A stretch of DNA of 40,386 nt. Origin: a virus. Its lineage: Duplodnaviria; Heunggongvirae; Uroviricota; Caudoviricetes. Positions 1,153 through 37,277 of this stretch are shown piece by piece. The translations under genes were made by a program, and so were the position numbers. Each line of letters begins with the position of its first letter. The stretch's first letter is position 1. The notes under the pieces were generated by a model. That model worked only from the letters and a program-made list of their open reading frames with translations. It ran no database searches and was not told where the DNA came from. The stretch lies in the IMG/VR virus record IMGVR_UViG_649989946_000002; one strand, 5' to 3'.

Positions 1153-4100
1153 TCAGCTGATACTGATGCCTGCGGTGGCTTTCTTCATCACCACAACCAG
1201 CAAATCGCTGATACTTGCTGTGGGATACCAGTCATTTACCAGCCATGATGACACCGAAAACTCCAGCGTCATGTGGCCGCGACCAGCTGGCATATCAATA
1301 ACACCACTGTAAATCAGCGTATTATCCAGCGCGGTACGGTTATAAATTTCAGCACCGTTTTTCCGTACTATCAGGCGGCATGACGAATAAATATCGTTAT
1401 TCTCCCGCTCATGTTTAGCGCCGCTGAATGCCACCGCCGGAATAACAATTTGCCTGTCAAAAGGCTGATCGTCATAAATCCTGACGGTAATGGTCCCTGA
1501 TGGCCACCGCTCCGGTGCCCGGGAGTCCCGCGGGAAAGCCTTACCCACTGTTTTGACAATATCGCCTTCAATCTGGTTGGCTGACAGTTTCCCTTTAATC
1601 TGACAGTTCTCATTTATCGTAACGTTGTTGAGCGTCCCGGAGTTCGCATTCACACTGCCACTGATATCTGCATTTTTAGCGGTCAGCTTTCCGTCCGGTG
1701 TCAGGGAAAATGCAGGAGGATTACCGCCGCTGGTAATGGTGGGAGCCGTCAGATATTTCAGGAACACTTCATTCATGAATATCTGATCACCCTGACCAAC
1801 AAACATCGGTTTTGTGTTGCCATTTGCAGGATTAATCATCGCAATCCTGTCTGCCGCCAGCAGCACCTGACTCTGCATGCCGTCGGGGGTGTTCTCAATA
1901 CCGGCACCGATACCCGCGATATAAAGGCGTCCGTCCTGCATCTGCTGCAGCTTCACAGCCCACATGCTGTTCAGATTATTATTTGTATCAACCTGAACCT
2001 TCTGTATCTGCTGGATCGCTGCACTCTGGTCTTCCAGTTTCTTATTGACGGTCTGTGTGATTTCATTGCTGACATCCGTAATGGATGTCCTGATTTCAGC
2101 CAGGTCAGGCGCAAGCTGACCGTTATCAATCTGCGTCCACAGCTCCTGAGCCAGATGGGTTTTCCCTATCTCGCCTTTGAAAAAATCCAGATAGCCGGAT
2201 GCGTCATCACTCGGCTGACCAACAGCCTCCACGAATGCCGATTTGCCAACGGTGTTCACACTGCGAACGTAAAAATAATAATTATGGCCCGGTTTGATAT
2301 TGATACTGGCGGCTATCCAGTACAGCGCCGTACCAAGATAGCGGGCTGTGGTTTCAACCTGCCTGATATCCGCAATCCGTTTTTCCGAGAACCAGAACTC
2401 AAACTGTACCGTCGGGTCATAAACCGCAAGATGTGGCGTGGCGGTTATCTGAAAATAGCCCGGTGTCAGCTCAATCCGAGACGGCGCTGCCGGTGCGGCA
2501 ATCCGGAACGATACCGATGCCGGATCGCCCTGCAGCTCCCACGCATTTACCGCCCGGACCGTCAGCATGTAACGCCCCAGCGCCAGTTGCGTGAAGCGGT
2601 ATGTGGTTTCCGTCGTCCTGGCCGTGCTGACCAGCCGCTCACTGCCATCGTCCGCTGCCACGGTCAGGCGAAGCAGGAAGCTCACGCCCTTCACCACCTT
2701 CGGCGTGTCCCAGCGCGCCAGCACCTGATATTCCCCACTGTCTGCGGTGACTTCGGCGGTCAGGTGCTGCACCGCTGGCGGCGTGACACCATTCACCGTG
2801 CCGCTCTGGTCGCCGTCAAAGTGCGCCCCGTTATCCACGATGGCTTCTTTTTCCGGTACATGCTGCACGGCAGTGATGGCATACGTGCCGTCATCGTTCT
2901 CACGGATACTCACACAGCGGAACAGGCGCTGACGCAACGTCGGCAATTTCAGCCCCCACACGCTGTATTCTGCAACGCCGTCAGGAACCCGGTTCACTTT
3001 CACCTTAAGTCCGTCGGTGACGGACTGAACCTCCACGCTGACCGGATTACCACTTCCGTCAACCAGGCTTATCAGCGTGGTACCGGAGGATGGCAGCGTG
3101 ATTTCACGGTCGAGCGTCAACGTCCGGGTCTGGCTGTTTACCGCCAGCACGCGACCACCGGTGCTGATACCGGCATAGTCATCATCGCAGATTTCAATGA
3201 CATCGCCCGGTACATGGCGAAGCCCTTCAGCACCCACGCTGAAATCCACGGTCTGCGTCTCCAGCAGTTCCGTTTTAATCAGCCACAGCCCGGCGCGGTG
3301 TGCCTGCCCCCGACTGGTACAGCCAAAGGCATCCATCTTCGTGACGTTACGACCGTAACGGGCAATGGCCTGCGTGTCCTCCACAAGCTCTGTCGCCGTC
3401 TCCCAGCCGTTATCCGGGTCAATCCAGTTCACCTCAACGGCATTATGGCGGTCTTTCAGGGCGCTGAAGCTGTAGCGGAACGGCGCGCCATCATCCGGCA
3501 TCACCACATTGCTGCGGTTATAGATCCACACCTTATCCGACGGTCGGTCCTGCACGAATGTCAGCGTCTGCCCGTTCCATACCGGCATACAGCGCATCGC
3601 CGAGCAAAAATCACTGAGAACATCCCACGCCTTGCGCTGTGTGGTCAGCCAGGCATTACAGGTGATGCGCGGCTCCGTGCCACCAAAGCCATCCGGCACC
3701 GACTGGTCGCAATTCTGGCCGATGACATACAGCGCCCATTTGTCCACATCCGCCGCACCGAGACGCTTCCCCATGCCGTAGCGCGGATGGGTCAGCATAT
3801 CCCACAGACACCAGGCCATGTTGTTGCTGTATGCTGGCTTAAACGTTCCGTCCCAGATACCGCTGTATTGCCGCGTCTGCGGGTTATAGTTCGACGGCAC
3901 CTGCAGAATGCGCCCGCGAAGATGATAATTACGGCTCACCTGCTGGCTGCCGAACTGTTCCGAGTCCACCTGCACGCCGACCAGTGCCGTGTTCGGGTAG
4001 CACTGTTTCACATCGATGATTTCGGTGTATGACGACCAGAGCGTTTTGTTCTGCAGCTGGTCTGTGGTGCTGTCCGGCGTCATTCTGCGCATCCGGATAT

Positions 4101-5364: not shown

Positions 5365-6005
5365 TTGTCGGTATACCTCTCTCGTTTGCTCAGTTGTTCA
5401 GGAATATGGTGCAGCAGCTCGCCATCACCACAGTAAATGGCGGCATGATTCGGCACCGATGAACCAAAACAGCACAGCAGCACATCGCCCGGTTGTGCTG
5501 ATGACAACGGCACCTGATACAGCCCTGTGGCCTCCAGATTATCCAGATAGAGATTCTGACCGTGACGCCACCAGTCATCCTCGCGATGAAAATCCGGCAT
5601 CTCAATCCCCGCCAGATGATAAGCATCCCGGAACAGCGTGTAACAGTCCGTCACCCCGTGCTCAAAGCGCCGCCCTGTGAGATGCGGCACACAGCGGAAC
5701 TTATGAATCGTCCCCCGGCAGACCAGCCACCACGGCAAATCACTCTGCACCTGCAGCCGCCGGTCGGCCTCACTCAGCCAGGGCAGACCACCGGGGTGGC
5801 TGTGGACCAGCGCCACAATCTCACCCTGCATTTCTGCCTGCAGCCAGTCTTCCGGCGACATACGGAAATACGCCTCCGGCTCACCGGAGATATTCACGCA
5901 GGGGAAATATCTTTCCCCCTCCGGCGTGCTTACCACGAAGCCGCACGACTCCGCTGGCGCACATCGCCGGGCGTGCGCCAGAATCGCTGATTCTGTCTGT
6001 GTCAT
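5262..6005 (-). CDS. K: Tail assembly protein K (JAB/MPN plus NlpC/P60-like); true start may be the internal Met at 5861
   Basis: 247-aa ORF MTQTESAILAHARRC... with HSHPGG (JAB) motif; follows L. Confidence 0.85.
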   Translation of the reverse strand: MTQTESAILAHARRCAPAESCGFVVSTPEGERYFPCVNISGEPEAYFRMSPEDWLQAEMQGEIVALVHSHPGGLPWLSEADRRLQVQSDLPWWLVCRGTIHKFRCVPHLTGRRFEHGVTDCYTLFRDAYHLAGIEMPDFHREDDWWRHGQNLYLDNLEATGLYQVPLSSAQPGDVLLCCFGSSVPNHAAIYCGDGELLHHIPEQLSKRERYTDKWQRRTHSLWRHRAWRASAFTGICNDLAAASTFV

Positions 6006-6010
6006 GGGAT

Positions 6011-6708
6011 TTACTGCGAAAGTTTGTTAATGGAAAGGAAGCCGCCAAAGTTGCCGACGTTATTGCGGAACTTACAACCGCTCAGGCATTTGCTGCATTT
6101 ATCCTTCGTGATATCGGACGTTGGCTGGTCATATTCATCCGCGACCGCCGGACCGTGATAACCGCACTCATCGCCGCGATAGGTCCAGGTGCAGGTGTTG
6201 GCCAGCATGATACGTCCCGGAAAAACAGCGCCGTCCGTTTCCGTCGGCGTGGACAGTACAAAAGAGGCACTCACCGCGCTCAGTTCGCTGCACTGCTCAA
6301 TGCGCCAGCGGCTGATCACCTCCTGCTCCGGATCGGCGTCACTGTTTCCGTTGACGAAGTTCACCGCATCCAGAAAACGGGCGTAAACCTTACGCCGGAC
6401 CACCGTTCCGCCGACCAGACTCTGCAGATCTTCCGCCATCCCGGTGACCATACCGTACAGGTTAGAAACCGTCAGCGTGGGGCGCGTACTGGTGCCTTTG
6501 CCATTCAGTTCAAAACCACTCCCCTGAATGGGATACGGCTGATACTGTCGCCCCTGCCAGGTGACCGGCTCACCTTTTTCGTTCTGCTCATTACAGAAAA
6601 ATAACGTTCTCCACCGACCTCTGTCAGATCGATTTCCCAGAGCACCACGCTGGCAGACTGCTCCGCACGGGTGCATTCATTCAGTGTTTCCTGCCGGATA
6701 TCCTGCAT
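6011..6708 (-). pseudogene. L: Minor tail protein L, reading frame broken by 1-nt deletion in a homopolymer (forward A5 at 6597-6601)
   Basis: ORF 6505..6708 gives MQDIRQETLNECTRAEQSASVVLWEIDLTEVGGERYF then diverges; ORF 6011..6676 carries FFCNEQNEKGEPVTWQGRQ... onward; one extra T would join them into a ~232-aa L. Confidence 0.8.
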
Positions 6709-20543: not shown

Positions 20544-20928
20544 ACATCCCGGTTTCTTGACCTTCCCTCCCTCCCCGCACAGAACTGGCGAGCGTGAGGG
20601 ACCAATATGTGAGCCATAAATGCCTTATCTTCAGAAATGTAGTTGGTATCCGAATAGAACGATATTGTAAATTCACCTAAATACGAGGCATTGCTGTAGT
20701 TGAATTGCAGTACTGTATTAGCCTGACAGTGACAGAATACGATATTGACTCTGTCACTTGTGAAATGGTCAGAATGGTTAGCAGTTATGGTGATCAGTCA
20801 ACCACCAGGGAATAATCCTTCGTATTCTTATCGTGCTTTACTAACGCGGCCTCAATTGCCCTGTGATCTTACCCAGCAATAGTGGACACGCGGCTAAGTG
20901 AGTAAACTCTCAGTCAGAGGTGACTCAC

Positions 20929-21228
20929 ATGACAAAAACAGTATCAACCAGTAAAAAACCCCGTAAACAGCATTCGCCTGAATTTCGCAGTGAAGCCCTG
21001 AAGCTTGCTGAACGCATCGGTGTTACTGCCGCAGCCCGTGAACTCAGCCTGTATGAATCACAACTCTACAACTGGCGCAGTAAACAGCAAAATCAGCAGA
21101 CGTCTTCTGAACGTGAACTGGAGATGTCTACCGAGATTGCACGTCTCAAACGCCAGCTGGCAGAACGGGATGAAGAGCTGGCTATCCTCCAAAAGGCCGC
21201 GACATACTTCGCGAAGCGCCTGAAATGA
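20929..21228 (+). CDS. insE: IS3 OrfA (InsE-like, HTH/leucine zipper)
   Basis: [54 protein letters not shown]... Confidence 0.9.
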
Positions 21229-22091
21229 AGTATGTCTTTATTGAAAAACATCAGGCTGAGTTCAGCATCAAAGCAATGTGCCGCGTGCTCCGGGTGGCCC
21301 GCAGCGGCTGGTATACGTGGTGTCAGCGGCGGACAAGGATAAGCACGCGTCAGCAGTTCCGCCAACACTGCGACAGCGTTGTCCTCGCGGCTTTTACCCG
21401 GTCAAAACAGCGTTACGGTGCCCCACGCCTGACGGATGAACTGCGTGCTCAGGGTTACCCCTTTAACGTAAAAACCGTGGCGGCAAGCCTGCGCCGTCAG
21501 GGACTGAGGGCAAAGGCCTCCCGGAAGTTCAGCCCGGTCAGCTACCGCGCACACGGCCTGCCTGTGTCAGAAAATCTGTTGGAGCAGGATTTTTACGCCA
21601 GTGGCCCGAACCAGAAGTGGGCAGGAGACATCACGTACTTACGTACAGATGAAGGCTGGCTGTATCTGGCAGTGGTCATTGACCTGTGGTCACGTGCCGT
21701 TATTGGCTGGTCAATGTCGCCACGCATGACGGCGCAACTGGCCTGCGATGCCCTGCAGATGGCGCTGTGGCGGCGTAAGAGGCCCCGGAACGTTATCGTT
21801 CACACGGACCGTGGAGGCCAGTACTGTTCAGCAGATTATCAGGCGCAACTGAAGCGGCATAATCTGCGTGGAAGTATGAGCGCAAAAGGTTGCTGCTACG
21901 ATAATGCCTGCGTGGAAAGCTTCTTTCATTCGCTGAAAGTGGAATGTATCCATGGAGAACACTTTATCAGCCGGGAAATAATGCGGGCAACGGTGTTTAA
22001 TTATATCGAATGTGATTACAATCGGTGGCGGCGGCACAGTTGGTGTGGCGGCCTCAGTCCGGAACAATTTGAAAACAAGAACCTCGCTTAG
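21225..22091 (+). CDS. insF: IS3 OrfB (InsF-like DDE transposase; made as OrfAB by -1 frameshift)
   Basis: 288-aa ORF overlapping orfA in the -1 frame; DDE integrase-core motifs (WAGDITYL..., HTDRGGQY..., [17 protein letters not shown]). Confidence 0.9.
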
Positions 22092-22556
22092 GCCTGTGTC
22101 CATATTACGTGGGTAGGATCACTGAATGCTTCCAGAGATACTTGATGTTCTATACATGCAATTACAACATCCGGGTAACCCATCGAAATGGTGCTATTAA
22201 GCATAGTTTTTACACGAACCTGCTCCTGGGAGGGGGCATCAATGTATTGATCTTTATGCATTTTGTCGCTCCATTCGTTTGCTCTTCACTTGCGGCTAAA
22301 AATATAACGTCAAATCACTCAGCATGAAAGAGTGAAAGTTTCAGCGCGTTTCCCTTACATAATCTGTCGTTTGTATTCTCTTCAGGCATACCGGAAAGAC
22401 TAGGTATTGTCACACAACCAATACCATCGACAATCGAGATTTATATCTATTCGGTAATGTTTAAATATAACAAAACCCCGTAAAAACGAGGTTTATGGGT
22501 AATTTGTATTGTTGAATAGCATCTGATGAGAAATTGATGCTAATACTATAAACATA

Positions 22557-23196: not shown

Positions 23197-23401
23197 TCAT
23201 TTTCACTTTCTTAAATCTAACGACAGATGGCTAACATTTAAGTATTGTGAAATATTATCAAATGTAATCATCATTGATTTACAAAAGATACATTTTGCCC
23301 CGAAAGGATTTCTGTCAGAAACATCAAAAGATGATGTTCTATACTGAGAACCATGGCAACACGGGCATCTAAAGTGAATATGGTTTGTAATATTTTCTAC
23401 C

Positions 23402-23614
23402 TCAAAGTGCCACTACATGAACAGCTGCAGGGCCTTTAGGTCCGTTCTCAATACCAAATTCGACTTCCTGATTCTCAGTTAACGTTTTGAAATCGTTGCT
23501 CTGAATAGCTGAGAAATGCACAAACACATCTTTGCTACCATCTTTCGGCGTGATGAAACCAAAACCTTTTTCAGGGTTAAACCATTTCACTAAACCAGTC
23601 ATTTTGTTAGACAT
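23402..23614 (-). CDS. cspI: Cold-shock protein, CspI-like
   Basis: 70-aa [41 protein letters not shown]... with RNP1/RNP2 motifs. Confidence 0.9.
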
Positions 23615-23977
23615 TATTATTACCTTTTGAAGAAGTTAGCCCTTGGGCAGAATGGTCCGAAAAAAAATATCAGAGAGAAAAACCAACAAGGAAATCTCAA
23701 GAGGTACAAATAATAAAATTATAACAATGACTGCTTCAGATAATTTTGTAACAAACCAGAACACCATTAACGCATGATTAACCAACCATAGCAAGGATTA
23801 CTTTTGTAAAGAAAAACACACGAATGAAACAATAGCTTTATTTATTAATAAAACGTGTCATTCTGTCTAATGACCTTTTATCTTACCCTTAAGATTTCAA
23901 GGATTTTGACTCATGGAAGAGTCCTTTTTATTTAAATTTCACATTCAGCGCTAAAAATAATCCGATTTAATATTAAT

Positions 23978-26066: not shown

Positions 26067-26347
26067 GAGATTGTGGTGCTTTTTGTGGGAGTCATCCACT
26101 TACGCACTTTGTTTTGCCATGCCAGCAGTTAGCTTCTGCTGTAAAACTATTCATGCAGCAAACCTGCACTTCACCACAATGGTTAGCATACTTTTCCTGA
26201 TTAAGATTTTGCCAAATATGCTAGCCATTGTTTCATGTATTGGACCTCCTTACTTTTTATTAAAGAGATCCAATATTCACTACTCTGTCCGTATCTCTAC
26301 TCAGGCATCAGCCTTCTTCGTTATCGTATACAGACGAGCGATGAATT

Positions 26348-26563
26348 TTAATCAGTAATGATGACATTTGCTGCTGCAGGACCTTTAGCACCACTCTCTA
26401 TAGAGAAGGTAACCTTTTGACCTTCAAATAAGGTTCGATAATTATCATTCTGAATCGCAGAAAAATGCACAAACACATCTTTACTACCATCAACAGGAGA
26501 AATAAAGCCGAAACCTTTATCAGCGTTAAACCATTTTACTAAACCAGTCATTTTATTTGACAT
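26348..26563 (-). CDS. cspB: Cold-shock protein, CspB-like
   Basis: 71-aa [70 protein letters not shown]... Confidence 0.9.
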
Positions 26564-26862
26564 TCTACATTCCTTAACTTGAGCCTTTCGGCATAAATGG
26601 TTTGCATAACAGAAACGACTTCGTACTTAATTGGAGAGACTCAAAGAAGGAATAAGTGAATAACACCTGAAATGAGAACTGCTTTAGTAAACTACTTCGT
26701 ATATCGTCTGTTCTTCAAACCGACGCAATCATTAACGCATAGTTGAACATATGAAGCAATGTTTATTTTAGACATCCAGCCGTCTTCAACCCCATCAAAA
26801 AACTATAGCTTTCTTCAGGAACGTGTGTATAGTGCGCCAAGTTATCAGTATTAAGGAATTTT

Positions 26863-29655: not shown

Positions 29656-29907
29656 TTATTCTCCTGAAAAAGCAGAAAAGCCAGCTTTTATTCCGATCTC
29701 TTTCAATGCCTGTAATGAAGTGACAAACTCACCTTCGCGCAAGATAAATCCGTCCGTGACCCGAGCATCCACAAAATTAATTAACGCAGCCCCATTCTTT
29801 CGCAAACACATAATGCGGTAATGACTAACAAGATTTCCATTTTCAACGCACACAGCATAGAGGCCATCTTCACAAAAAATTTTACGCAGTTCTTCGATGT
29901 TCATCAT
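29656..29907 (-). CDS. Hypothetical 83-aa protein (position and length fit Qin Rem; identity not verified)
   Basis: ORF MMNIEELRKIFCEDGLYAVCVENGNLVSHYRIMCLRKNGAALINFVDARVTDGFILREGEF... Confidence 0.5.
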   Translation of the reverse strand: MMNIEELRKIFCEDGLYAVCVENGNLVSHYRIMCLRKNGAALINFVDARVTDGFILREGEFVTSLQALKEIGIKAGFSAFSGE

Positions 29908-30123
29908 CAGAATCCTTCCGGATAATTAGCTCTCCCCTTTAAGGGACCATCCCTCTTATCCCTGCGCGCTACTTAAGTATTTTTGATTCTATTCCGGCAC
30001 CGTCCAGAACTTCAAACGCGTTGAAAATAAAAACAAAAACCCGCCGAAGCGGGTTAAGTGCGGGTGCGTTGAGGATGCCTGCCACATCAGAGGTGGCGAG
30101 GGATTTCTCCCCCGCCGGGTCTC

Positions 30124-30279
30124 TTACTCCTCAGGTTCGTAAGCTGTGAAGACAGCGACCTCCGTCTGGCCGGTTCGGATTCGTACCTCGCAGAGGTCTT
30201 TCCTCGTTACCAGTGCCGTCACTATGACGGTTAAACAGATGACGATCAGGGCGATTAACATCGCCTTTTGCTGCTTCAT
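30124..30279 (-). CDS. hokD: Hok-family membrane toxin HokD (RelF), 51 aa; absent from the ORF track
   Basis: Hand translation of the minus strand: MKQQKAMLIALIVICLTVIVTALVTRKDLCEVRIRTGQTEVAVFTAYEPEE*. Confidence 0.9.
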   Translation of the reverse strand: MKQQKAMLIALIVICLTVIVTALVTRKDLCEVRIRTGQTEVAVFTAYEPEE

Positions 30280-30350
30280 AGCCTGCTTCTCCTGTCAACG
30301 CAAAGCAGAAGTGTCACCTTCGGTGCGAAACAGAGATGTCATGCTTTGGT

Positions 30351-30638
30351 TCAGAGAATGCGTTTGACCGCCTCGCTATATACTTCCGAGCGTTCTCTTT
30401 TCCCAACAGAAATCACGAAAACGACAACTTTCTCGTCTATAACCTGGTATACAAGGCGATAGCCTGAAGACCGGAGCTTAATCTTGTAACAATCAGGCAT
30501 ACCACGGAGCTTGTTTGCTTCAATCCGGGGTGACTCAAGTACTTCAACCAGCTTCTTTTTCAACTGTTCACGTACCGTCGAGCCCAGCTTTCGCCATTCC
30601 TTTAGTGCCCGCTCGTCAAAATCCAGAAAATACGCCAT
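30351..30638 (-). CDS. relE: mRNA interferase toxin RelE
   Basis: 95-aa ORF MAYFLDFDERALKEWRKLGSTVREQLKKKLVEVLESPRIEANKLRGMPDCYKIKLRSSGYRLVYQVIDEKVVVFVISVGKRERSEVY... Confidence 0.95.
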   Translation of the reverse strand: MAYFLDFDERALKEWRKLGSTVREQLKKKLVEVLESPRIEANKLRGMPDCYKIKLRSSGYRLVYQVIDEKVVVFVISVGKRERSEVYSEAVKRIL

Positions 30639-30877
30639 CAGAGTTCATCCAGCGTCACACGTACTGGCTTAGGATTACGAAGCCGTTCTTTCACTATCTC
30701 CACAAGTTCAGCATCTTCATCACTCAGGAGTGTCTGTTTGAACGGCAAGCGTTCATTGTCAGCGATATACTCGAGCATGAGACGAAGCGCTTCAGAAGGA
30801 GTTACACCCATTTTTTCAAGCGCGGCGTAAGAACGCGCTTTAAGTTCATCGTCAATACGCAGGTTAATGCTACCCAT
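30638..30877 (-). CDS. relB: Antitoxin RelB
   Basis: 79-aa ORF MGSINLRIDDELKARSYAALEKMGVTPSEALRLMLEYIADNERLPFKQTLLSDEDAELVEIVKERL...; stop overlaps relE start. Confidence 0.95.
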   Translation of the reverse strand: MGSINLRIDDELKARSYAALEKMGVTPSEALRLMLEYIADNERLPFKQTLLSDEDAELVEIVKERLRNPKPVRVTLDEL

Positions 30878-30887
30878 GTCTTACACC

Positions 30888-30916
30888 TATTGTAATTACA
30901 AATGTCATTACAAGTA
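30888..30916 (-). promoter_or_regulatory. relBE operator (relO) / promoter region
   Basis: Adjacent imperfect palindromes TTGTAATTACAA and TTGTCATTACAAG immediately upstream of relB. Confidence 0.6.
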
Positions 30917-31359
30917 TCGCACTACAACATGCTTAGGGCAAGTCACGAAGGAAGTCAGAAAGTAGTCGTAAGAACGGTGATCACTGTCCGCTTTGTGCCA
31001 GGAGCAGCCATTGCTAAGTCCATCCTGTATTGTGCAGGTCAGCTCGTTTTTAAAGAGTCCGGCCATCATCTTACTGGTACAGACACCATATACTTTGTGA
31101 CGGTCAGGCTACATATGCACAACTCAACTTATTCATCTATTTTTTGCTTTAGCATGTCAGTGTTGCTTTCTCGTCGGCGGGTGAGCGGTGACCTGACCTG
31201 TCGATAAAGGAACGTAGCACGTTTTATGCAACACCCGCATGCGGCAGAAAATTATTGCCGAACGTTTACCCCTGTCAACAAGCTTTACTTTCTGAGGCGC
31301 GCCAGCCCGCGAGGAAAACAATCTGAACATCAAACAATTAATGACACAAGAAATACGAT

Positions 31360-31408: not shown

Positions 31409-31726
31409 ATGTCTGTCACAATTCAGGGAAATACCTCAACCGTTATTTCAAACAACTCCGCCCCGGAAGGAACATCAGAAATAGCCAAAATCACAAGACA
31501 AATTCAGGTGCTGACTGAAAAGCTTGGGAAAATCTCATCGGAAGAGGGGATGACGACACAGCAGAAAAAAGAAATGGCTGCATTGGTACAGAAGCAAATT
31601 GAAAGCCTCAGGGCTCAACTGGAGCAGTTGTTAAGGCAGCAGGCAGAGAAAAAGAATAAAGACGCGACAGTTCAGCCTGATAAAAAGAAGAGAAAAAGAC
31701 GATACAAATACCGCTGGCACCATTGA
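31409..31726 (+). CDS. flxA: FlxA-like protein
   Basis: 105-aa ORF MSVTIQGNTSTVISNNSAPEGTSEIAKITRQIQVLTEKLGKISSEEGMTTQQKKEMAALVQKQIESL... with basic C-terminal tail. Confidence 0.8.
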   Translation: MSVTIQGNTSTVISNNSAPEGTSEIAKITRQIQVLTEKLGKISSEEGMTTQQKKEMAALVQKQIESLRAQLEQLLRQQAEKKNKDATVQPDKKKRKRRYKYRWHH

Positions 31727-31939: not shown

Positions 31940-33600
31940 CACTTTTGTGGGGACAGTCCACAAAACTGCCAACTTCCGCTTCTTGCTCTTAGCGGACATT
32001 AGCATAGGCTATTTACCATAACGCCTCATTACGCGCACCGCCCAGACTGACTCAGCGCGTTTCTGGCATATCCCCGGTAAAACAAGTAACAAACCACCCG
32101 AAAATGAACACCAGAAACGCGACTTAAGAATCTACCCTATGAATGGATATGCACTCAACCGAATCGATCTTGGTTTCAATCTATTTTATCGGGATCAGGC
32201 TTCTTTTTAGGTAACTTCGGGGGCTTAACTTGCTGATGACTTTGCGTTCGGCGCGTAAGCCAGGGATGGTCAGCTTTAGATTTAACATAGTATTTTGAGC
32301 GTAAATCAATACGGGCATTATCCACTCGTTCATGGACACTCTTTTCATCATCCAGTGGTATAGGCTCCGGGCCATCAACATACTTTTCCCAGCCCAGCGC
32401 TTTCCCGTCATACAGAACGTTAATTTCACCGTCAAAGTTCTCACATACAGTAACAACCGAATGCCTAAGTCGATATCCCCGGCCCTCACTGCGTACCTGA
32501 AACGCACTGCTTTTGTACTGGAAAGTGAGATTTTTAGACAGAACGCGCTTCGCCTGTAGGCTGAAGATATAACCCAGTTCCTCTTCAGAATGGTGCACAT
32601 CAAGATGAGCATTATCAGTAGTACGAGGCGACGTAGCGAACCGGTTGTTATAGGCTTCAATAAAGGTCGGCAACCATGCATTTGCTGTTTCAATATCACT
32701 GATATTCTGAAGCCGCATTTCTTTGACCAGCCTGTCCTGTAGTGTCTGATTGGCGCGCTCTACCCGCCCTTTTGCCTGCGGGCTGTTGGCATGGATTGGC
32801 TCGATGCCCTGTGTCTTTATCGCACGAGTGAACTGGGTCAGCTCACCTTCCCGCTCTGGGTTATTTACCCTGAATATACTGTGTCTATCAGAGTAGAGAG
32901 CGAGCGGTACGCCATGATCATTAAGGTAACCCCGGAGGGTTTCCATGTAAGCCCGGGTTGTTTCAGCAGGCACAAAACGCAACGCCATCAACGCACTGGT
33001 GGCATCATCAATGAAAACGATCAGTGTACATCTGGGGCCTCGATTTTCAAACCAGTCATGAGGTGAGCCATCAATCTGGATCAGTTCACCGTAAGATGGT
33101 CGTCGCATGCGGCGTTGATATATACGGGCAATTTTACGACGGCGTTCACGCCATAACCCCTCTTCTATCATCCACTTTCTGAGAGTTTCAACGGATAAAG
33201 ATAAACCGTGTATCTCGCGCAATTTTTCGCACGCAAACGTAGGTCCAAAATCAGCGTAACGGCCTTTGAGGAGTGAAATTACTGTTGCTCTGAATTCAGT
33301 AGAAAAGGAATTATTAGGATGCTTTCCACGTCGGTGGGAAACCAGACCAGAAGGCCCTTCATTTCTATACCGTTGCACCAGACGTTTAACCTGCCGAATA
33401 GAAATGCCAATGCGTGCCGCAGCTTGTTCCTGAGTAATATGTCGATTAATTGACTCCTGAATAATCTGAAGTCGGTGGAGTTCCTTATGACTCATCGTAA
33501 CAGTCTCTTTGATCATGAAAAATCCCCCAGAGAATTGTCTGGGGACATTTTAGAATGGTTCAAAGGGGACATTACAGCTTGGTGTTAACAATAGCCTGCT
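31940..33600 (-). mobile_element. Second IS element (rve/DDE transposase, IS481- or ISNCY-like); ends not resolved
   Basis: Single large transposase ORF flanked by non-coding DNA; GGGGACA-containing motifs near both flanks; no terminal inverted repeats could be confirmed by eye. Confidence 0.35.
32176..33516 (-). CDS. DDE-type (integrase-core, rve) transposase with N-terminal HTH
   Basis: 446-aa ORF: HTH (ITQEQAAARIGISIRQVKRLVQRY), DDE core (LIQIDGSPHDW..., LIVFIDDATS..., ALYSDRHSIF..., RVERANQTLQDRLVKEMR). Confidence 0.85.
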   Translation of the reverse strand: MIKETVTMSHKELHRLQIIQESINRHITQEQAAARIGISIRQVKRLVQRYRNEGPSGLVSHRRGKHPNNSFSTEFRATVISLLKGRYADFGPTFACEKLREIHGLSLSVETLRKWMIEEGLWRERRRKIARIYQRRMRRPSYGELIQIDGSPHDWFENRGPRCTLIVFIDDATSALMALRFVPAETTRAYMETLRGYLNDHGVPLALYSDRHSIFRVNNPEREGELTQFTRAIKTQGIEPIHANSPQAKGRVERANQTLQDRLVKEMRLQNISDIETANAWLPTFIEAYNNRFATSPRTTDNAHLDVHHSEEELGYIFSLQAKRVLSKNLTFQYKSSAFQVRSEGRGYRLRHSVVTVCENFDGEINVLYDGKALGWEKYVDGPEPIPLDDEKSVHERVDNARIDLRSKYYVKSKADHPWLTRRTQSHQQVKPPKLPKKKPDPDKID

Positions 33601-33969
33601 TCTCCTTGCCTTCCGGCACTCGCGACAGATTATGTTTAGACGACTGTCGTAGCGACGTATTTCTCCGTCAGGTAATGACCAGATAAGGTCCGGATCAACC
33701 ACAGCAGGTTTCTTCACCTTTGCCCTCGAGAGTTTTTTGCGGGCGTTTTGCCAGTCCTTACGCGCCTGTTCAGACGGGAATAACCCGTAACCAGAGCTGT
33801 ATACATCGCCACTGGCAACCAGCTCTCTGGCCAGAACGCTCATCAGATATCTTGTTGCCCCAGTTTTAGCTTCCAGTTGTCGTAACGTCTCGCGCCCACT
33901 CTGGCGTACGAGTTCCACCACCTGCCCTTTAATTTTTTCCCGCTCTTCTTGTGTAAAAACTTTTGCCAC
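33550..33969 (-). CDS. Hypothetical replication-module protein (position of a helicase-loader gene); C-terminus may be altered by the adjacent IS
   Basis: 139-aa ORF MAKVFTQEEREKIKGQVVELVRQSGRETLRQLEAKTGATRYLMSVLARELVASGDVY...; last codons lie in the IS-proximal sequence. Confidence 0.4.
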   Translation of the reverse strand: MAKVFTQEEREKIKGQVVELVRQSGRETLRQLEAKTGATRYLMSVLARELVASGDVYSSGYGLFPSEQARKDWQNARKKLSRAKVKKPAVVDPDLIWSLPDGEIRRYDSRLNIICRECRKARRSRLLLTPSCNVPFEPF

Positions 33970-34009
33970 AAGTCCTCCTGAACATTACTTTATACCCTAA
34001 AATCAACAC

Positions 34010-35029
34010 TTATCCCCTGAAACCAGGCGGAATTTCTGTATCCGGTTCAGAAATATGATTCACACAACGCTGTACAGGTGAACGTCCCAGGCGGATGACC
34101 AGTTCGTCCCATTTTTCGCGGAGTTTTGACGGGCTCATGATGTTTTTTACCCAGAATTGATCTCGCTGTACCCGACCAAACATTTCGCAAATTTGTCTGT
34201 GGCTTCTGCCATCCAGCATCCGCATTGTGCGCACGTCATTGGCCCAGGCTGTCCAGTTAGGCTCTTTTGGTCGCATGATCTCTCCATCGTCGCTGGCAGC
34301 CTGTTCGTAAAGGTTCACGATCCGCCCCCAAATCCACTGCGCACACGCCAAATCCTCCCTGCTACCCCACTGGCGTTTTTTCGCACTAAACACAACCGCG
34401 TCGGGGTTCCGGGTTAAAAAATCCTGTTCAGCGGTCTGCGGGTCCGGTTGCGAAGCTTCCGGACGAAAAGTGTTTTTATTCTCTGTAGTAATCTCTGTTG
34501 TATTCTCTGTAAGATCATCAGGCCATTTTGACCCGATGACATTGGGTCGTTTTGAACCAATGGAGCGTTTCATTTTGACCTCTTCCATCGTGTCATTTTG
34601 ACCTGATGGAGCGGCGCATTTTAAACCGATGGATTCGCTCAATTTGCCACCATCTAAAAGCTCGCTCCCGTAGTTGATCGTGTAGAAATTGGTCATATCG
34701 CGCTTTGATTTATTGAGCTTTTCACAACGCAAAAGCCCCAGCGTTTTCAGACTTGCAAACGCGCGCTTTAACGTTGACTCTGACCAGAATGGGAACTGTT
34801 CCAGCCATTGTTCCGTTGTGTTGTAAATCCAGCGAACACCATCACATTCCATGCCGGAATTGGTATCTCTCAACCAGTAATGCAACTGCTGCAACACAAT
34901 GGCTTCATTTAAGCCAATCTTCATCGCAAGCTGTGTGTTTATAACCAGTGGGCGTTCAGCAAAAAGAAGGCTCATAATTCCATCCAGCTTTTTGTTGGTA
35001 TTGCTGTCGATACGCAAGCTTGAAAGCAA
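34010..35029 (-). CDS. Replication initiator, lambda O-like (replisome organiser) with internal origin iterons
   Basis: 339-aa ORF in the O position downstream of the cro-like dicC; six 23-bp iterons lie within its coding sequence; true start may be the internal Met at 34975. Confidence 0.7.
   Translation of the reverse strand: MLSSLRIDSNTNKKLDGIMSLLFAERPLVINTQLAMKIGLNEAIVLQQLHYWLRDTNSGMECDGVRWIYNTTEQWLEQFPFWSESTLKRAFASLKTLGLLRCEKLNKSKRDMTNFYTINYGSELLDGGKLSESIGLKCAAPSGQNDTMEEVKMKRSIGSKRPNVIGSKWPDDLTENTTEITTENKNTFRPEASQPDPQTAEQDFLTRNPDAVVFSAKKRQWGSREDLACAQWIWGRIVNLYEQAASDDGEIMRPKEPNWTAWANDVRTMRMLDGRSHRQICEMFGRVQRDQFWVKNIMSPSKLREKWDELVIRLGRSPVQRCVNHISEPDTEIPPGFRG
34524..34662. repeat. Origin-of-replication iterons: 6 direct repeats, 23-bp period, consensus CATTTTGACC-N-GATGGAG
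   Basis: Repeat units start at 34524, 34548, 34571, 34594, 34617 and 34640 (CATTTTGACC / CGTTTTGAAC / CATTTTAAAC / CAATTTGCCA); adjacent A/T-rich stretch with 3x TCTCTGT at 34470-34520. Confidence 0.75.
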
Positions 35030-35477
35030 TTGCTTTTTCTATAAGTTCGTCAGTTTCACGATCCACTACGGCAGGATCAGCAAAAAGCAGTCCGGACTCC
35101 ACCACATCGCCATATTCTTTGTTTAACCCGGCGATCATGCACGTGATGCTTTTTCCGTCAGTAATTTCACGATACAACCTGAAATCACTAATCCGGATAG
35201 CCTCCATAATCGCAGGCACTAGCGCCGTGAACTTTTCACGCTTATCCCTGGTATCGATAGCCTTCCAGCGTTCGAATATCTTCACTCGATTAACACCAAG
35301 CGCTCGCTGATCAACCGCGCCACCTTCATCTGTGACACGCTGAACATCGATGTTCGGGCGCTCTTTCAAAGCCCAGAATGCTTCAGTGATTAATATCGTC
35401 GCCTGCTCCTGTGTCATTCCTGGTCGACATATCCAGGCATCCAGAGCCTCACGAGCCTGTTCAGGAGTGATTTTCAT
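34956..35477 (-). CDS. Hypothetical early-region protein in the cII/YdaT position
   Basis: 173-aa ORF MKITPEQAREALDAWICRPGMTQEQATILITEAFWALKER... between dicC and the O-like gene. Confidence 0.5.
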   Translation of the reverse strand: MKITPEQAREALDAWICRPGMTQEQATILITEAFWALKERPNIDVQRVTDEGGAVDQRALGVNRVKIFERWKAIDTRDKREKFTALVPAIMEAIRISDFRLYREITDGKSITCMIAGLNKEYGDVVESGLLFADPAVVDRETDELIEKAIAFKLAYRQQYQQKAGWNYEPSFC

Positions 35478-37219: not shown

Positions 37220-37277
37220 TTTCTGGTGACGTTTGGCGGTATCAGTTTTACTCCGTGACTGCTCTGCCGCCCTTTTT
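37220..37277 (+). ncRNA. dicF: DicF small regulatory RNA (ftsZ/division-inhibiting sRNA) including its terminator hairpin
   Basis: TTTCTGGTGACGTTTGGCGGTATCAGTTTTACTCCGTGACTGCTCTGCCGCCCTTTTT matches the DicF sequence as recalled; between ydfC and dicB. Confidence 0.85.

Follow-up and report, generated by a model that had tools for sequence, protein, structure and literature searches.

The stretch of DNA analysed here, which we call the window, comprises 40,386 nucleotides of viral DNA assigned to the Caudoviricetes (IMG/VR record IMGVR_UViG_649989946_000002) and carries on its minus strand the consecutive genes relB, relE and hokD (relF). This locus is itself already known and is textbook material; our interest lies in how a gene of the type I hok/sok kind came to stand behind a type II toxin-antitoxin (TA) module. 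Our comparisons make it highly probable that the K-12-type relB-relE-hokD unit was formed by the insertion of an IS1202-family transposon at the Shine-Dalgarno (SD) sequence and start codon of a prophage hok gene.

An earlier sequence-only reading had named the genes a hokD-relE-relB TA operon, and the identifications are borne out by the profile databases and by the identity of each protein to its counterpart in Escherichia coli K-12 MG1655 (RefSeq accessions of the three proteins: WP_000813254.1, WP_000323025.1 and WP_000534858.1). HokD matches Pfam HOK_GEF (82.9 bits, E = 1.2e-23), RelE matches Pfam ParE_toxin (51 bits) and TIGR02385 RelE_StbE (54.7 bits), and RelB matches Pfam RelB (112.3 bits) and the NCBIfam equivalog NF008412 (133 bits against a cut-off of 96). 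RelE additionally aligns over its full length to the PDB chains 4FXE, 4V7J, 4V7K and 2KC8, and its sequence contains K52, K54, R61, R81 and Y87, which we take to be residues with a functional role. hokD translates cleanly, and the frameshift or stop that would have spoken against it is not there. That the gene had been passed over in the list of open reading frames (ORFs), as was suspected, is plausible because its 51 aa fall under the 60-aa default of such a list; RefSeq does annotate hokD.

The start codon of relE and the stop codon of relB share one nucleotide at 30638, which makes relB-relE an antitoxin-first bicistron with coupled genes, and a gap of 71 nt separates relE from hokD. Alignment of positions 29950-31000 (1,051 bp) to K-12 relBEF, which lies in the Qin prophage, gives a single base difference (at 30889, 99.9% identity), and the operator, the gene overlap, the 71-nt gap and the terminator are the same in both; the same segment is 100% identical to strain STEC276. 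The complete locus was found in 1,162 of 5,426 complete E. coli genomes, and across 74 viral contigs the relBE-hokD cassette is nearly clonal, with at least 98.7% identity.

Table 1. Coordinates of the features of the relB-relE-hokD locus and of the element that lies upstream of hokD (positions in the window; IRL and IRR, left and right inverted repeat; UTR, untranslated region).
Feature	Position	Strand	Description
Intrinsic terminator of hok target locus	30038-30055	-	AACCCGCTTCGGCGGGTT and T-run
fbi-like 3' element	30062-30074	-	CCUCAACGCACCC; homology to intact loci runs to 30062
hokD (relF)	30124-30279	-	51-aa Hok/Gef membrane toxin gene; intact ORF
Right target-duplication copy	30278-30292	-	GGAGAAGCAGGCTAT, 15 bp; has the hokD SD and AT of ATG
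IRR	30293-30318	-	...GGTGACACTTCTGCTTTGCGTTGACA; tip ACA-3'
Right subterminal repeat	30325-30341	-	Second copy of internal part of the inverted repeat; 13/17 positions
relE	30351-30638	-	95 aa, ribosome-dependent mRNA endonuclease toxin
relB	30638-30877	-	79 aa, ribbon-helix-helix antitoxin and repressor
Variant base	30889 (about +18 of mRNA)	-	First base of relB SD, GAGGUG (K-12) to UAGGUG; + strand A, C in K-12
relO operator	30890-30913	-	TTGTAATGACAT and TTGTAATTACAA, four hexads
PrelB (putative)	30913-30941	-	-35 TTGCCC 30941-30936, 17-nt spacer, -10 GATACT 30918-30913
ydfV	30902-31207	+	Cargo, divergent from relB; ydfV-like gene alongside relBE in other copies
flxA	31409-31726	+	Cargo limited to the E. 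coli 3.3-kb copy
Transposase ORF, IS1202/ISEsa1 family	32176-33516	-	Intact, 446 aa
Left subterminal repeat	33541-33559	-	ACCATTCTAAAATGTCCCC; 15/19 positions
IRL	33565-33590	-	TGTTAACACCAAGCTGTAATGTCCCC; tip 5'-TGT
hok leader 3' remnant and left duplication copy	33591-33620	-	GTGCCGGAAGGCA; left duplication copy at 33591-33605

Boundaries and content of the element

The sequence comparisons argue that relBE is the right-end cargo of an IS1202-family transposon of 3,298 bp, which extends from 33590 to 30293 in the order IRL, transposase gene, flxA, ydfV, the relB promoter PrelB with its operator relO, relB, relE, subterminal repeat and IRR. An exact 16-nt direct repeat, AGGAGAAGCAGGCTAT, lies at the left junction and again at 30293-30278, 3,313 nt apart. 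The two terminal repeats match at 19 of 26 positions and have TGT...ACA tips, and not one of 300,000 random 26-mer pairs equals that match. About 24 bp inside each end there is a subterminal repeat, whose score is reached by none of 2,000 shuffled sequences on the left and by 17 of 2,000 on the right. The right subterminal repeat and the IRR occupy most of the 58 nt from the relE stop to the element tip; therefore, as the element spans 33590-30293, these 58 nt are best taken as transposon end and not as a remnant of a hok locus. The IRL was also found in at least 20 other contexts, and the sequence beyond the IRR tip varies between loci.

The transposase combines N-terminal helix-turn-helix (HTH) domains (Pfam HTH_28, HTH_23, HTH_29 and HTH_32) with a DDE core (rve_3), and plasmid genes of equal length are annotated as intact transposases, either IS1202-like of the ISEsa1 family or ISNCY. 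RefSeq splits the 446-aa ORF into a pseudogene 'missing C-terminus' (32453-33502) and a 49-aa gene 'ydfW' (32176-32325). The latter is nothing but the last 49 codons of a continuous transposase ORF, and the split appears to be a K-12-derived annotation artefact that spread to hundreds of genomes.

Published descriptions of the IS1202 family give transposases of 394-507 aa in the ISAjo2/ISAba32, ISTde1 and ISEsa1 groups, and passenger genes in some members, termed 'transporter IS' (PMC10132070; bioRxiv 10.1101/2022.12.17.520857), as well as imperfect terminal inverted repeats of about 24-26 bp with 5'-TGT/ACA-3' tips and an extra internal repeat near each end (PMC10132070). The element of the window resembles this family in its transposase with HTH domains and DDE core, its terminal and internal repeats and its long target duplication. 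Unlike the members described so far, the group to which it belongs carries relBE together with variable cargo and reaches total lengths of 3.3-7.1 kb.

The left junction can be read against related loci with and without the insertion (L-numbers designate the sequence loci that were compared with the window). The 29 nt at 33620-33591 on the minus strand are identical at 27 positions to the end of the hok leader in the intact locus L008; in the window the rest of the leader has been deleted, and these nucleotides now join the 3' end of a DUF977 gene. E. coli H15 and K_EC180 keep the whole hok leader, which directly adjoins the left end of the element. Rfam family RF01794, which covers the entire hok mRNA leader from its 5' end to the hok AUG, matches these complete leaders, which in L091 and L092 end at this left junction, over the full model with 100 and 104 bits (104 in L091, 100 in L092). 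The leader of H15 and K_EC180 terminates in ...AAGGCAAGGAGAAGCAGGCTAT with the IRL directly after it; at the junction itself the leader end ...GGCAAGGAGAAGCAGGCTAT is followed by the IRL start TGTTAACACC. APEC O78 has an uninterrupted hok locus in the same Qin-type context without relBE, and the removal of the element plus one copy of the repeat recreates exactly this uninterrupted locus. K-12 has no counterpart of window positions 32361-35197, and its leader is absent. The left half of the element is gone from K-12, whereas the window keeps the transposase gene, the IRL, the left duplication and the 29-nt leader remnant. Because everything to the left of window position 32360 is lost, K-12 shows just an unexplained break of homology.

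One would argue from K-12 that the three genes form a native prophage operon, in which an undefined 'major genetic rearrangement', by illegitimate recombination or deletion, replaced the hok leader by relBE without any transposable element. Such a view is understandable where 32361-35197 is missing and only the abrupt loss of hok homology is visible, and RefSeq, which marks no mobile element around relBE and lists the transposase as a pseudogene, agrees with it. However, it leaves unexplained the 15/16-bp direct repeat at both ends of the segment, the terminal and subterminal inverted repeats with TGT...ACA tips beside an open transposase ORF, and the full hok leader that borders the segment on the left in other strains. 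The occurrence of the same ends in at least five other loci, each with a duplication specific to that locus, already contradicts it, and we regard a rearrangement without a transposon as hardly credible. The designation of the locus as an operon in the sequence-only reading therefore holds in one respect and fails in another: co-transcription is known for the identical K-12 sequence (PMC3598666), but relBE is transposon cargo and not a native TA module of the prophage.

Insertions at other sites

Elements of the same kind occupy the SD/start codon in at least five further hok alleles, carried by plasmids or found in other genera, and each is flanked by its own duplication of 13-16 bp. In the window and at other E. 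coli Qin-type hokD loci the 3,298-bp element is flanked by GGAGAAGCAGGCTAT (15 bp). At a hokA/pnd-like locus of the IncI1 plasmid pDEC9B-1 (L093) a 3.3-kb element, 99.5% identical, lies between copies of TGGAGGGGCTATGATG (16 bp). Two further hok alleles, on a Klebsiella IncFIB/HI1B plasmid and on an IncHI2 plasmid, hold elements of 7,082 bp and 6,093 bp between 15-bp copies of GGAGAAAAAGGCTAT and GGAGAAGAAGGCCAT, respectively, and a Kluyvera hok allele (L112) holds one of about 4.5 kb with GATGTTAGCCATG (13-14 bp). Outside hok loci, an element of about 4.6 kb in L104 is flanked by TACCAAAACAAGCCCC (16 bp) and a divergent element of about 4.3 kb in L125 by CATTAAGCTGCAAAT (15 bp). The duplications of 15 or 16 bp thus differ by locus (window/L091/L092, L093, L172, L173, L104 and L125).

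Altogether, hok SD/start regions make up about 12 of about 20 distinct enterobacterial left flanks and come from different hok alleles. One of these hok insertions is oriented the other way round (L108). The IRL of five further species adjoins a full-length hok leader confirmed by Rfam, and at most sites GGCAA or a similar motif lies directly 5' of the duplicated bases. The repeated insertion at the same position in different hok genes indicates that hok start regions are a preferred target.

We also considered that the relBE segment spreads among hok loci not by transposition but by homologous or microhomology recombination, as an exchange of cassettes. The SD regions of hok genes share short conserved blocks (AGGAG...GGCTATG) on which such an exchange could act, hok is a multi-copy gene in E. 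coli (median 2 copies, in up to 9 places per genome), some contigs break at the junction (L047), and the E. coli transposase is flagged as a pseudogene. Yet recombination would not leave 15-16 bp of each recipient locus duplicated on either side, and the duplications do differ by locus; the non-hok sites L104 and L125 have duplications of 15-16 bp as well, and the boundaries are base-exact at TGT and ACA in all copies. Thus it is very improbable that cassette exchange accounts for the distribution, and transposition is the reading that we retain.

Within the element, relB-relE are the genes next to the IRR and face outward wherever the right end is visible (L104, L105, L109, L110, L112, L134, L163 and L173), while the central cargo varies. 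The IncHI2 copy (pSPRC-Echo1, L173 10837-12075 and 12551-14246) has between transposase and relBE a nested ISEsa2 of the IS110 family, a cytochrome b gene and a cation-diffusion-facilitator transporter gene; the Klebsiella copy has genes for a DUF1471 protein, an SDR oxidoreductase and a LysR regulator. The linkage of relE with hok does not hold in general: relatives of RelE with 55-80% identity occur on viral contigs without a downstream hok, and the linkage is therefore specific to the transposon. In L037 and L043 deletions begin exactly at the IRR tip, as would be expected beside an active insertion sequence (IS) end. As many as 647 plasmids carry the element, and the transposase region occurs in 802 of 5,426 E. 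coli genomes.

Several individual sites deserve separate mention. The IncI1 arrangement is rare (4 of 5,426 genomes, all on plasmids) and has a HokA/Pnd-like toxin that is 35% identical to HokD (L062 1846-2009; L093 5147-5313); since it has its own 16-bp duplication, this second relBE-hok 'operon' arose independently. In L109 (Leclercia sp. EMC7) the IRR is followed at about 5554-5600 by a 10-nt duplication remnant and then by a second, related IS1202-family left end, TGTTAATCCTATGTAGTAATGTCCC, which suggests repeated hits on one hok site. The left junction of the Kluyvera sp. non-hok site L104 overlaps at 3837-3950 with an Rfam match to isrO (58.8 bits against a gathering score of 42). More distant relatives of the transposase, with 44-62% identity, occur in 8-12 copies per genome in Hahella sp. 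SMD15-11 (L113-L123, L140), in a metagenome-assembled genome of the Rhabdochlamydiaceae (L129-L137, L151-L152, L158) and in Massilia luteola (L143-L150). CAA/ACA is often seen in their left flanks, some 15-17 nt away from the IS tip. Such copy numbers in unrelated bacteria indicate that the IS subgroup is active well outside the Enterobacteriaceae.

The hokD transcript, its promoter and the prophage around it

In its 3' part hokD is an ordinary hok gene. Its SD, ORF, 3' UTR with the fbi-like element and terminator are retained and are homologous to those of intact hok/sok loci, with 90-98% nucleotide identity to the intact hokD-type loci L003, L008 and L009 downstream from 30293 and homology to L008 down to 30037. 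Towards the 5' side, homology to five other hok loci begins only at 30293-30295, 14-16 nt upstream of the hokD ATG. Intact loci have a promoter, tac, ucb, mok with its SD and start, the Sok target and the sok gene (elements as defined in PMC9841398), and all of these are absent before hokD of the window. RF01794 finds the leader directly upstream of hok in 12 intact loci with 81-114 bits (L003, L004, L007-L009, L091, L092, L094, L098, L101, L112 and L127), and intact hokD-type loci with a full leader are present in 4,018 of 5,426 genomes.

The mok/sok-like elements that the sequence-only reading had suggested looking for around 30280-30350 were not found. RF01794 gives no match at E<=10 in 29900-31000 or in the isolated relE-hokD spacer with truncated matches allowed, the mok frame in the spacer contains a stop and no ATG or GTG start, and the promoter scan found no promoter-like site on the plus strand of 29900-31100. 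The 54 nt upstream of the start of homology resemble hok leaders no better than shuffled sequence does. We also tried to read the spacer as a decayed remnant of mok and the Sok target, but in alignments to three leaders 152-449 of 1,000 shuffles reach its score; this idea was dropped because the alignments match shuffles and the spacer is transposon end. This leaves hokD as an orphan toxin gene rather than a full type I system.

The loss of the leader also bears on the folding of the mRNA. In intact L008 the 5' sequence GGGUGCUUGAGG pairs with CCUCAAUGCACCC (z = -9.9), and tac, the 5' partner of the fbi-like element, is absent from the relBE-hokD transcript. A substitute pairing of UGCGUUGA (30302-30295) with the fbi-like element appears only in a fold that starts at the relE stop; in the complete 873-nt mRNA its probability is about 0, and we rejected the pairing, attributing it to the choice of 5' end. 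A translational coupling in which the relE 3' end GCAUUCUCUGA masks the hokD SD, with pair probabilities of 0.4-0.75 in the full mRNA and 0.2-0.27 in a shorter context, is not supported by shuffled controls. The pairing of the hokD SD with the 16S 3' end is predicted at -7.4 kcal/mol. The Tyr47 codon UAC of hokD (30139-30141) sits in UUACGAA; editing of hokD mRNA from A to I, with a change of Tyr to Cys at such a site, has been reported (bioRxiv 10.1101/2025.08.07.668861).

Among the 74 near-identical cassettes polymorphism clusters in the hokD 3' UTR (30082-30121), with recurrent variants at 30082, 30110, 30112, 30117 and 30118 and singletons only in relB, relE and hokD. Recombination with other hok copies might account for this pattern, as might relaxed or compensatory evolution of a 3' hairpin. 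A match of 30034-30115 to the Rfam family isrK (25 bits against a gathering score of 50) consists mainly of the terminator hairpin and was treated as chance.

Transcription of the unit starts from the promoter of the module. The operator relO consists of two 12-bp units at 12-bp spacing (30890-30901 and 30902-30913), and its pattern TTGTAATNACA has 4 matches where 0.11 are expected. On the coding strand it reads exactly as the half-sites published in PMC2812701, which were defined via mutagenesis and footprinting and are bound by RelB2-RelE. The paired operator repeats described upstream of relB are therefore real, although the second unit had been misquoted as TTGTCATTACAAG: the window has ATGTCATTACAAG, and the base before GTCATTACAAG is A where T had been given. 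We placed PrelB by mapping the published protected region (-10 to +17; PMC2812701) onto the window. The putative promoter agrees with the consensus at 8 of 12 positions, just under the threshold of the promoter scan, and transcription would begin at about G30906. The site 30038-30055 is the sole terminator-like site between PrelB and that point. The range of 30124-30930 first assigned to the unit is thus correct for the genes but too short for the unit, which extends from the promoter, up to about 30941, to the terminator at 30055-30038.

The single difference from K-12 at 30889 weakens the predicted pairing of the relB SD with the 16S 3' end from -9.7 to -6.3 kcal/mol. The variant occurs in one of 1,247 E. 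coli genomes that have the region and in none of 73 viral-contig copies. That the window is STEC276 itself was ruled out, as it is free of the IS21 insertion of that strain and its tail genes diverge by 0.85%; the window derives from a distinct, related strain that has the variant in common with STEC276. Because two independent assemblies share it, the change is a real variant.

Some observations concern the window at large. Its prophage is of the Qin-type lambdoid kind and is far more complete than that of K-12, with a full terminase-to-tail-fibre module. Expected Qin-prophage features are two cspA-type thermoregulator leaders on the minus strand (23356-23761 and 26332-26724; Rfam, 111 and 159 bits) at the prophage cold-shock genes and the antisense RNA DicF (37221-37272 on the plus strand; Rfam, 77 bits), all three above the gathering score. 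In the comparison with STEC276 (L090), an IS3 copy at about 20864-22121 of the window is inverted with respect to the alignment on either side. Compared with K-12 and STEC276, single-base deletions are present at 6601, 11948, 26864, 27436, 27730, 29114, 31371, 31686 and 31692, all nine in homopolymer runs of 6-7, mostly A/T, which is typical of long-read assembly errors. They cause apparent frameshifts in the ydfT antiterminator gene (27730), in ydfU (29114) and, through two losses in A-runs, at the 3' end of flxA (31686 and 31692); none of them falls in relB, relE, hokD or the transposon ends.

Origin of the three-gene unit and its meaning

The steps by which the unit very probably arose can be outlined as follows. 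The transposon would have entered a prophage hok/sok locus in its SD/start-codon region and duplicated 15 bp, GGAGAAGCAGGCTAT. This insertion would have split hokD from its own promoter and the whole leader with tac, ucb, mok, the Sok target and sok, and the right copy of the duplication would have restored the SD and ATG of the gene. hokD is accordingly transcribed as the third cistron of the relBE mRNA, since the terminator scan found no terminator between relE and the transposon tip. Such an order agrees with the K-12 data, where PrelB gives rise to a single mRNA of relB, relE and relF (hokD), and toxin-induced cleavage leaves the relF portion to accumulate (PMC3598666). hokD would thereby have escaped antisense-RNA control, as the Sok-complementary region lies outside its transcript, and any HokD synthesis would depend on derepression of PrelB and on the gene's own SD. 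In K-12, RelE is an A-site mRNA endonuclease which RelB neutralises, RelB2-RelE represses PrelB at relO with conditional cooperativity, and degradation of RelB by Lon frees RelE and derepresses the promoter (PMC2812701; PMC3507626). For the transposon, relBE presumably acts as an addiction module.

Mobile elements next to hok genes are not without precedent, as K-12 hokA, hokC and hokE are reportedly inactivated, with IS150/IS186 nearby (a finding ascribed to Pedersen and Gerdes, 1999, and mentioned in PMC7232551). The present case is alike in that a mobile element beside the toxin gene, and not inside it, disables the hok locus. It differs in that the insertion lies exactly at the start codon, belongs to another IS family and recurs in many hok alleles, and in that the toxin gene is placed under a type II TA promoter.

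A number of points weigh against the transposon account as we present it. The evidence for mobility is purely comparative, and no transposition was observed; RefSeq calls the E. coli transposase a pseudogene, though its ORF is open and of full length. About 8 of the about 20 sites (some 40%) are not hok loci, and therefore the targeting is a strong preference and not absolute. The duplications are 13-14 bp or imperfect in L112 and L163, and L109 is a complex tandem arrangement. The accessibility of the hokD SD is unremarkable (P unpaired 0.25-0.39), and 20% of the controls with shuffled upstream sequence are at least as occluded. Also, the element behaves unlike its named relative: Harmer & Hall reported no target duplication and no target for ISEsa1 (PMC10132070), whereas the element of the window makes duplications of 15-16 bp and strongly prefers the hok SD/start. 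Finally, part of the account may already have been described, as a passage of PMC6379469 cites Ramisetty & Santhosh 2016 for relBE integrated into hokD. In the openly searchable literature, which leaves ISfinder and subscription papers uncovered, we found no account of the transposase, the inverted repeats, the target duplications, the targeting of hok or relBE as cargo. The reason for the missing leader of hokD thus appears not to have been described before.

A separate question, compatible with the transposon origin, is whether hokD serves as a working second effector. Upon loss of RelB, PrelB would fire and HokD would depolarise the membrane, reinforcing growth arrest, addiction to the element or abortive infection. 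The ORF, SD and terminator of hokD are kept in 1,162 genomes and in some 70 copies on viral contigs, the hokD portion of the mRNA is the one that accumulates most after toxin-induced cleavage (PMC3598666), HokD kills on overexpression (bioRxiv 10.1101/2025.08.07.668861), and relE points at hok in recurrent, independent insertions. However, translation of HokD from the native mRNA was found neither here nor in the cited literature, chromosomal hok loci are, in literature cited in the Hok survey, reported to lack post-segregational killing, and variants without hokD exist (L037 and L043). The opposite orientation in L108 does not suit a second effector either, and the orientation bias could stem from the target recognition of the transposase. 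The sequence-only reading had noted that prophage TA loci can stabilise their element or act against other phages; no PADLOC defence model matches HokD, RelE or RelB at E<=0.01. Therefore a working role of HokD seems to us rather unlikely.

We lean, with some reserve, towards a broader form of the transposon account, in which IS1202-type transposons use enterobacterial hok/sok loci as landing pads. The transposase would recognise the conserved end of the hok leader (hairpin ...GCCGAAAGGCAA, then the SD), and the insertion would decapitate the type I toxin gene and bring it under the relBE promoter. K-12 relBE would accordingly be a transposon addiction module, and relBEF a by-product of targeted transposition or possibly the selected capture of a second toxin. 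The only known target in the IS1202 family is dif/pdif, for the ISAjo2 group, and none is known for the groups with long target duplications or without them (PMC10132070; bioRxiv 10.1101/2022.12.17.520857). If the landing-pad view is true, the ISEsa1 subgroup gains a defined target and a defined duplication length.

The insertion of a transposon offers a concrete mechanism for two features of the locus, namely a hokD without hok regulatory elements and a type I toxin gene placed after a type II module. K-12 cannot reveal this mechanism, since the left half of the element is gone there. The annotation is corrected as well, 'ydfW' being the C-terminal part of an intact transposase and the spacer between relE and hokD the end of a transposon. 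One branch of the IS1202 family would gain a target preference and a duplication of 15-16 bp, neither of which was known before. The model module relBE would travel as transposon cargo, on 647 plasmids and in about one fifth of E. coli genomes, and this bears on the debate whether chromosomal TA modules are stress regulators or selfish addiction modules.

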